DNA of 64,000 nucleotides from Vermamoeba vermiformis (taxonomy: Eukaryota): positions 1-64,000 of the forward strand of contig JBEWZL010000208.1 of assembly GCA_045837725.1 (NCBI GenBank). The letters run 5' to 3'. This document shows, one piece after another, positions 13,224 through 13,440 of this stretch (its first letter is position 1; each line of letters opens with the position of its first letter). The translations under genes were made by a program, and so were the position numbers. Under the pieces are notes generated by a model that was not told the DNA's origin, did not search any database, and saw only the letters and a program-made list of their open reading frames with translations.

Positions 13224-13231
13224 TCCCATAA
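13224..13231 (+). promoter_or_regulatory. DUSE-like upstream element TCCCATAA
   Basis: Matches the Dictyostelium upstream sequence element consensus (WCCCAHAA). It ends ~60 nt before the predicted RNA start, the spacing known for dictyostelid small-RNA genes. Confidence 0.6.
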
Positions 13232-13290
13232 TGAAACGGTCGTCTAAACAGAGGCCTGCACAAAATCGTGAGTGCAACGCATTTACTTTC

Positions 13291-13431
13291 GACCGTCGTA
13301 TCTCAATAATAGAGAGCTCGTCTGACCCTTCGGGGTGCGAAAGGTGAGGCCTGGTCCCTCGGGATCGGGCCTTATGTCCTAGTCCGGCTAGCAATACGAG
13401 TCGATGTGGGTGTAACTCCCACCGGCGGTCG
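13291..13431 (+). ncRNA. Unclassified tRNA-like RNA with a three-hairpin insertion in place of the anticodon loop
   Basis: Acceptor GACCGTCG/CGGCGGTC; D arm TCTC-AATAATA-GAGA; stem CTCGT/ACGAG; variable TCGAT; T arm GTGGG-TGTAACT-CCCAC; internal cUUCGg and cCUCGg hairpins. It is a GC-rich island in an intergenic spacer, followed by a T-run. Confidence 0.85.
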
Positions 13432-13440
13432 TTTCTTTTT
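13432..13440 (+). terminator. Pol III-type T-rich terminator TTTCTTTTT
   Basis: Immediately follows the 3' strand of the closing stem. Confidence 0.6.

Follow-up and report, generated by a model that had tools for sequence, protein, structure and literature searches.

An undescribed multicopy family of tRNA-shaped noncoding RNA genes, represented in Vermamoeba vermiformis, with a structured module in place of the anticodon loop

We analyzed a 64,000-nucleotide (nt) stretch of DNA from Vermamoeba vermiformis (GenBank assembly GCA_045837725.1, contig JBEWZL010000208.1, positions 1 to 64,000 of the forward strand; here called the window), which is eukaryotic in character, with short introns and about 38% G+C. 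Positions 13291 to 13431 of its plus strand hold a 141-nt RNA gene that forms a tRNA-like cloverleaf with an unpaired terminal G and with a 74-nt module replacing the anticodon loop, as judged by direct reading, RNAfold, alignment, and a family model. This gene belongs to a selected, undescribed multicopy family of tRNA-shaped noncoding RNA genes and is neither a pseudogene nor a decoding tRNA. We assign a probability of about 0.7 to the fuller reading, in which it is a functional gene for a tRNA-derived noncoding RNA of about 141 nt that is L-shaped, is transcribed by RNA polymerase III (Pol III) from an external promoter of the small nuclear RNA (snRNA) type, and does not decode. An initial annotation, made from this sequence alone, had described the cloverleaf; the multicopy family with its variable middle and the probable origin from a tRNA-Tyr-like gene are new beyond it.

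The cloverleaf and its distant homolog

All cloverleaf elements that the initial annotation had placed between 13224 and 13440, namely the stems, the loops, the G at tRNA position 26, the UA link, and the upstream box, could be read directly from the sequence. An acceptor-like stem of 8 bp, including one G.U, pairs 13291-13298 with 13423-13430 and is joined by the link UA (13299-13300) to a D-like arm (13301-13315) whose 4-bp stem (13301-13304/13312-13315) carries the loop AAUAAUA without G18 G19. A single G (13316) separates this arm from a 5-bp anticodon-like stem (13317-13321/13396-13400) that encloses 74 nt (13322-13395). The enclosed module opens with CUG and the hairpin ACCC-UUCG-GGGU (13322-13336, with the hairpin at 13325-13336), which is its most conserved segment. 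It continues with two hairpins found by RNAfold, one of 14 bp, G+C-rich and capped by CUCG (13344-13375), which is the variable part of the family, and a small third one, CUAGU-CCG-GCUAG (13379-13391), and it closes with CAAU (13392-13395). In the family model alignment and in a relaxed tRNA call (ARAGORN at -ps90), this CAAU and the CUG at 13322-13324 read together like an anticodon loop, CUG/CAAU. Behind the anticodon-like stem lie a 5-nt equivalent of the variable loop, UCGAU (13401-13405; reading and alignment), and a T-like arm (13406-13422) with a 5-bp stem (13406-13410/13418-13422) and the loop UGUAACU, without U55 C56. The unpaired G (13431) is followed by the T-run TTTCTTTTT (13432-13440), which we read as a Pol III terminator.

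The geometry is that of a tRNA cloverleaf, with a 7(+1)-bp acceptor stem, a 2-nt link, a D arm, a 1-nt link, 5-bp stems, and a 7-nt T loop. The sequence marks of an elongator tRNA are missing: the 7-nt anticodon loop, G18 G19, T54 Psi55 C56, and the internal A and B boxes. Both ordinary tRNA genes of the window carry AGTGG or AGTCGG and GGTTCAA at the box positions, where the element has the D loop AAUAAUA and the T loop UGUAACU. The initial annotation had named the lost bases as those of the A and B boxes.

The minimum free energy (MFE) structure given by RNAfold was the cloverleaf with all three inner hairpins (13325-13336, 13344-13375, and 13379-13391), with the anticodon-like stem displaced by one pair so that G26.U formed and not U31-A. 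The MFE of −65.1 kcal/mol compared with a shuffle mean of −47.85 (standard deviation, 4.17), a z score of −4.14, and 0 of 200 shuffles were as stable. The minus strand folded less well (−48.5; z score, −2.03), leaving the plus strand better by 16.6 kcal/mol.

A metagenome scan with a 20-mer over the anticodon-like stem and the first hairpin identified one distant homolog, the sole one found, of 115 nt at positions 1517 to 1631 of a metagenome contig (L001). A 25-mer covering the D arm and the stem had 0 matches in the metagenomes, a viral scan gave 0 matches, and no second copy was found in the window by pattern searches with up to 3 mismatches or by the family model R1 with its filters off. 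R1 scored the window element at 170.6 bits and the L001 element at 132.6 bits, values that are high by construction, since R1 was built from both. When 185,579 prokaryote genomes were searched with the 20-mer, there were two matches, one in an Acidobacteria coding stretch and one in a Parcubacteria terminator hairpin, which scored 18 and 11.8 bits with R1; both are chance matches. The latter, in a Parcubacteria metagenome-assembled genome (L003, 3076-3095, minus strand), is the hairpin of the 20-mer followed by a T-run, an ordinary intrinsic terminator.

Mean column identity between the window element and L001 was 79%, with 21% of the aligned columns differing. All four stems of the cloverleaf (the acceptor stem with its 8 bp and the D, anticodon, and T stems) are present in L001, as are the unpaired G and the T-run (there TTTTATATTTTT), and UAAU stands where the window has CAAU. 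RNAalifold, given the two sequences, arrived de novo at all four cloverleaf stems and hairpin 1. We counted the 30 pairs of the initially annotated structure, including four tertiary pairs, on the two-sequence alignment and found standard pairs in 59 of 60 cells, compared with 36 to 50% when the 3′ partners were slid by 1 to 3 columns. In four pairs both partners had changed (4-137, 7-134, 12-24, and 19-123, the last being the tertiary 19-56 elbow pair), in three a change of one partner gave a wobble pair, and one pair was broken. All 8 acceptor pairs are kept in L001, two with changes on both sides (C-G to U-A and C-G to G.U) and one with a change on one side. In the D stem, pair 12-24 goes from C-G to A-U and pair 11-25 is lost, being U.C in L001. 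The anticodon-like stem and the T stem each keep 5 of 5 pairs, in each case with one pair present as U.G.

The elbow of the L shape is where the prediction could be followed most closely. The initial annotation had held that A19-U56 stands in for the G19-C56 pair of ordinary tRNAs and A15-U48 for G15-C48. In L001, T-loop position 56 changes from U to A jointly with a change of D-loop position 19 from A to U, a swap that bears out the first of these replacements, and the equivalent of the second (columns 16-115) is A-U in both the window and L001. The elbow swap is the most telling result of the comparison, as it had been predicted from one sequence beforehand. Altogether, 12 paired columns had changed and pairing was retained in 11, and the promoter motif was kept as well (see below), which upholds the claim of a selected tRNA mimic rather than a decayed tRNA. 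The homolog search and covariation analysis suggested with that claim thus yielded one relative, with the structure kept through compensatory changes.

It would be possible to read the element as a chance intergenic fold, or as the signal of an open reading frame on the opposite strand (13149-13460), which has 103 codons and a TTG start and overlaps the element on the minus strand. That reading frame matches no Pfam family, and the gap in the homolog is 26 nt long, not a multiple of three. The fold itself has the z score of −4.14 given above and is conserved in L001, and we regard this explanation as extremely improbable.

Related loci, copies, and RNA reads

We compared contigs or reads from 4 of 16 listed sequencing runs, which we call X4 (organism B), X6 (a water metagenome), X8 (organism C), and X13 (transcriptome sequencing of organism A). 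A contig of X4 follows the window over 13239-13456, differing at 7 letters, and diverges beyond. In X6, the same locus is present from a related organism. Upstream, there were 17 listed substitutions in 13093-13190 and 0 in 13191-13241; downstream, there were 0 in 13389-13441 and 16 in 13442-13621. The flanks of this locus thus diverge by 9 to 17% from those of the window, and the judgeable promoter and gene stretches, 51 and 53 nt long, show no listed change. At the flank rates, the probability of seeing zero changes is about 7e-5 for the upstream stretch and 7e-3 for the downstream stretch.

The element is not confined to one locus. Depth in X6 was 56.7 over 13303-13333 compared with about 4.5 in the flanks, and position 13315 was a C at 28.3 of 59.5 depth. 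Sequences from X6, X8, and X13 match 13283 or 13287 through 13336 and then enter three different sequences, each of them G+C-rich and palindromic; in X8 the shared part is identical at 54 of 54 positions. One further X6 contig matches 13388-13440 only. Many loci thus have 50 nt at the 5′ end and 50 nt at the 3′ end in common, each with a middle hairpin of its own. The gene therefore belongs to a dispersed multicopy family, present in several related organisms and of about a dozen copies. Among G+C-rich palindromic mobile elements, which we considered as a source of the 14-bp hairpin, nothing similar appeared in the 25 longest listed short-range inverted repeats of the window, which are mostly A+T-rich, and we dropped that idea.

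In X13, from which 13 million records (46% of the run) were read, 5 RNA reads could be placed. All 5 come from a paralog, with C at 13315 and an unmatched end behind 13336, and each continues past the shared 5′ part into a middle hairpin, which is the unspliced form. No splice joint was seen in the 4 runs compared; X13 is not a small-RNA library.

The genomic surroundings of the two distant homologs differ. Downstream of the element, the window has a gene for a DUF1152 protein (about 13700-14470, plus strand, with an exon at 14181-14468). A homolog of this protein is 85% identical, and the three top atlas clusters listed for it are dominated by Bacteria, Archaea, and phages; from these sequence comparisons, the gene may have been acquired in a eukaryote. 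In L001, the neighbor of the RNA gene (118-1269, plus strand) is an intron-less gene for a 383-residue leucine-rich-repeat protein with a weak LRR_6 match. As this neighbor is a protein other than CwfJ and DUF1152, the two RNA genes do not share synteny.

Promoter and terminator

Both the window gene and L001 have a TCCCAYAA box at −67/−68. In the window it is TCCCATAA at 13224-13231 (plus strand), −67 to −60 counted from 13291; in L001 it is TCCCACAA at 1449-1456, −68 to −61, with a C at the sixth place. This 8-mer is not significant by itself in the window, where WCCCAYAA has 9 matches against 6.4 expected, and it gains significance only because its position is conserved in the homolog. The tRNA-Tyr and tRNA-Ile genes of the window have no such box upstream. 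An A-rich box, CACAAAAT, lies at 13259-13266 (plus strand; −32 to −25), the site expected for a TATA-like element, and may act as one. The same CACAAAAT occurs at the identical offset in the upstream flank of one paralogous X6 contig, X8 has a comparable A-rich stretch, and L001 has the A/T-rich sequence CACATATATT at −37 to −28. At the other end, an unpaired G and then a T-run terminate both genes, and in related contigs from X4 and X6 the run is longer by three T residues after 13435.

[quoted passage not shown] The window box TCCCATAA agrees with this consensus and its spacing, being centered about 63 nt upstream, though the consensus is dictyostelid and may not be that of the host. A DUSE form with [CT] at the sixth place would fit the C of L001, whereas the printed [AT] does not. 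The initial annotation had named the box a DUSE. Motif and distance do match the consensus and are kept in L001. The name would imply a dictyostelid host, but protein comparisons indicated no lineage: a kinase reading frame matched generic kinase clusters only, and the DUF1152 homolog matched clusters in which prokaryotes predominate. In the open literature, the supplementary noncoding-RNA locus tables of PMC7919456 and PMC3188802 aside, we found no tRNA-like RNA behind a DUSE or in Amoebozoa.

These features suggest an external promoter of the snRNA type with Pol III termination, in which the polymerase and the start site are deduced from the sequence. The promoter would consist of the TCCCAYAA box at −67/−60 and the A-rich box near −30 and would act from outside the gene; transcription would start at or beside G13291 and would be carried by Pol III into the T-run, where it would stop.

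Other box-like sequences led nowhere. A DUSE-like box, ACCCACAA, at 51498 (region 51498-51647, plus strand) is followed after about 67 nt by an 80-nt stretch ending in CTGTTTTT, with a z score of +0.58, which is probably not a structured RNA. A reverse-oriented TCCCACAA at 13184-13191 (minus strand), 33 nt upstream of the forward box, has two changes in a related contig and is probably not functional. The motif of Dictyostelium Class I RNAs, CCTTACAGC, does not occur exactly in the window; with one mismatch it has 11 matches, where 7.6 would be expected.

The promoter also bears on whether the element might be a tRNA-derived repeat, a pseudogene family or something like a short interspersed nuclear element (SINE), that spread in these genomes, does no work as an RNA, and owes its apparent conservation to the youth of its copies. 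Its multicopy nature (X6 depth of 56.7 compared with about 4.5 in the flanks), its likeness to tRNA-Tyr, and the fact that this copy was not seen in the X13 RNA run would suit such a repeat. A tRNA-type SINE needs A and B boxes, and these are absent; there is neither an A-rich or simple-repeat tail nor a target duplication, and in both genes the unit ends in G and the T-run. The promoter motif lies outside the unit, at the same distance in a homolog that differs at 21% of the columns, and the −30 box is retained in a paralog. Pairing is retained in 11 of 12 changed paired columns, and the related locus has no listed change over 51 and 53 nt between flanks that are 9 to 17% divergent. We consider a functionless repeat quite unlikely.

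Relation to tRNAs and other known RNAs

In the window, only tRNA-Tyr(GUA) at 7573-7643 (minus strand) and tRNA-Ile(UAU) at 15480-15553 (plus strand) were called by ARAGORN at default settings and by Rfam at gathering scores. No Rfam family reached its gathering score on the element. At E values up to 10 on 13150-13500, the best matches were BjrC174 with 18 bits (cutoff, 45) and mir-1684 with 14.9 bits (cutoff, 60), and the tRNA (RF00005), tRNA-Sec (RF01852), and vault (RF00006) families gave no match. ARAGORN with introns allowed reported nothing at default or -ps, its mitochondrial search reported nothing at default settings, and its tmRNA search at -ps80 found no gene in L001 or the window region. 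The L001 element was recognized neither by ARAGORN, at any threshold, nor by Rfam. The initial annotation had recognized no signature of an snRNA, a small nucleolar RNA, the signal recognition particle, or RNase P/MRP in the element, and these covariance-model searches and relaxed ARAGORN runs likewise returned no strong match. Hammerhead and box C/D readings of the segment CUGA...GAAA were tried by eye and dropped; Rfam did not support them.

Model R1 gave the window tRNA-Tyr 25.5 bits (E value, 1.3e-5) and tRNA-Ile 8.9 bits. It aligned tRNA-Tyr end to end, with the loop CUG/UAGU placed onto CUG, the insert, and (C/U)AAU, and the T arms of tRNA-Tyr and the element are alike. This comparison with two tRNAs points to a tRNA-Tyr gene as the probable ancestor of the family, the module sitting between positions 34 and 35. 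The triplet at the place of the anticodon would be GCA in the window and GUA in L001 on one and the same body, which implies that there is no decoding constraint. Both ordinary tRNA genes of the window, tRNA-Tyr(GUA) of 71 nt and tRNA-Ile(UAU) of 74 nt, are intron-less. Tyr(GUA) and Ile(UAU) tRNAs carry introns in most eukaryotes, and the tRNA intron repertoire of the host may be unusual.

The same insertion point raises the question of a working tRNA whose positions 34 and 35 are separated by a long structured intron, tRNA-Cys(GCA) in the window and tRNA-Tyr(GUA) in L001. ARAGORN calls such a gene on 13291-13431 only at -ps90 and -ps80, as a tRNA-Cys(gca) interrupted at position 35 by an intron of 67 nt. 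CUG joined to CAAU (window) or UAAU (L001) would give a 7-nt loop with U33 and A37, and conserved ends with a variable middle are also typical of intron-bearing tRNA families. Against this stand the silence of ARAGORN at default and -ps, and at every threshold in L001, and of the Rfam tRNA and tRNA-Sec models at E values up to 10. The supposed intron has none of the expected marks. An intron at the canonical site 37/38 would leave a C at position 37, C32 would face a C (window) or a U (L001) at intron position −3, and none of the sites 33/34, 34/35, and 37/38 allows a 3-nt/4-bp/3-nt bulge-helix-bulge; the intron's first 12 to 15 nt are the most conserved part of the family. The initial annotation was thus right to set aside a canonical 37/38 intron, and no excision to an ordinary tRNA was seen. 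Tyr identity needs C1-G72 and A73, which the window tRNA-Tyr shows, and Cys identity needs U73; the element has G-C, an 8-bp stem, and G. G18 G19 and U55 C56 are gone, and the elbow is rebuilt as A-U or U-A. One body would, moreover, bear GCA in one gene and GUA in the other, and the RNA reads are unspliced in 5 of 5 cases, with no joint. We think a spliced tRNA unlikely and retain the reading of a nondecoding tRNA-shaped RNA whose module belongs to the mature molecule.

Several observations weigh against that reading. With a single distant homolog, every covariation is a single event; columns 27-46 of L001 are identical by the design of the search, being the 20-mer itself; and the observed values were also reached in 34 of 500 column shuffles. 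L001 is shorter by a 26-nt gap and has neither hairpin 2 nor hairpin 3. Its own MFE of −37.3 has a z score of −2.08, with 8 of 200 shuffles as good, and the MFE structure lengthens the anticodon stem by CUGAC/GUCAG and is missing the D stem; the minus strand of L001 is about equally stable (−36.6; z score, −2.91). In the comparison of sequencing runs, the listings leave out changes closer than about 30 nt to a contig end, and for 13272-13358 of the related-species locus there is no listed locus-specific piece. As for expression, 0 of the 5 X13 reads lie on this locus at an identity of at least 99% in this one RNA run, and none of the runs listed as holding the sequence is on record as RNA. The 5 paralog reads are few, and with about a dozen copies they might also stem from DNA carry-over. 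The assignment to Pol III is suggested by the T-run alone, and the name DUSE for the upstream box is given by analogy.

If the gene works as we propose, the module splitting the anticodon loop would be part of the mature RNA, and the tRNA-like body would serve as a handle for the machinery of end processing, stability, and transport (La, RNase Z, the CCA enzyme, and exportin). The invariant CUG and the ACCC-UUCG-GGGU hairpin would form the putative face of a small ribonucleoprotein (RNP) that binds a specific protein, as in vault and Y RNAs, and the copy-specific hairpin might add stability or identity.

Vault RNAs are transcribed by Pol III, are about 90 to 140 nt long, and are bound by the TROVE protein TEP1. 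The element resembles vault RNA (RF00006) in its small size, its T-run end, its several paralogs, and its paired conserved ends around a variable center, and human vault RNA genes, too, use upstream elements. It differs in having a full four-arm cloverleaf with an elbow pair and not a panhandle, and in lacking A and B boxes, which vault RNA ends carry. A link to TEP1 would rest on this analogy. Dictyostelium has MVPA and MVPB and a TEP1 ortholog, according to the accessible part of one report (PMC13100048). No Dictyostelium vault RNA sequence was found in the literature examined, including the accessible part of that report.

In gene organization, the element is closest to tRNA-Sec (RF01852). 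The two share a 13-bp stack of acceptor and T stems (8+5 in the element) and a G discriminator. The tRNA-Sec genes have an external promoter of the snRNA type and are transcribed by Pol III without a 5′ leader, and their products have a 9+4 or 8+5 stack and a G discriminator. Unlike tRNA-Sec, the element has neither a UCA anticodon nor an anticodon loop of 7 nt, and TCA occurs in it within the D arm only; its variable loop is 5 nt long, where tRNA-Sec has a long arm, and its D stem has 4 bp and not 6. The dictyostelid DUSE genes, those of snRNAs and of Class I and II RNAs, are alike in the position of the box and in a small RNA that ends at a T-run, but the RNA itself is unrelated.

The initial annotation had likened the element to transfer-messenger RNA (tmRNA) and to YrlA. 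The concept holds, a tRNA-like module plus a second domain, but there is no similarity in sequence or in Rfam. With tmRNA, which is bacterial, the element shares elbow mimicry and a second domain; tmRNA itself has other structures in place of the D and anticodon arms and contains a tag reading frame. The ends of YrlA RNA, also bacterial, lie in the Ro-binding stem and not in an acceptor stem. Among eukaryotes, mascRNA and menRNA, rodent BC1, and the trypanosomatid tRNA-like RNA associated with the signal recognition particle are tRNA-derived or tRNA-shaped and do not decode. mascRNA is cut from long RNA polymerase II transcripts, and BC1 and the trypanosomatid RNA keep internal A and B promoters; to our knowledge, none of these RNAs pairs a hairpin module in the anticodon loop with an external promoter. 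The closest working analogs of the element are vault and Y RNAs, with tRNA-Sec for gene organization, and the element is a member of none of these classes.

A more speculative proposal, drawn from these analogies and something of a long shot, is that the family supplies the small-RNA partner of a TROVE-type RNP, vault/TEP1 or Ro-like, in amoeba-like protists. In a bolder variant, the 8-bp acceptor stem (with G-1:C73, or as 8+5 with G73) would be CCA-tailed and charged. If the TROVE proposal is true, the family would be a counterpart of vault and Y RNAs built on an elbow-competent tRNA L shape with an snRNA-type promoter, its CUG and UUCG hairpin would be the protein-binding site, and its copy-specific hairpin would identify the paralog. 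The bolder variant, if true, would make it a nuclear-encoded, aminoacylated tRNA mimic of a eukaryote.

Nondecoding tRNA-shaped RNAs are rare in eukaryotic nuclear genomes, and those known keep an internal promoter or are cut from long transcripts. The TCCCAYAA element would here serve a class of genes that is absent from its clients in the literature searched. As a natural experiment, the family may show what in a tRNA is required for shape and what for decoding or transcription. It suggests an RNP not yet known as well and is a candidate for the vault-type or Ro-type small RNAs that are missing in protists.

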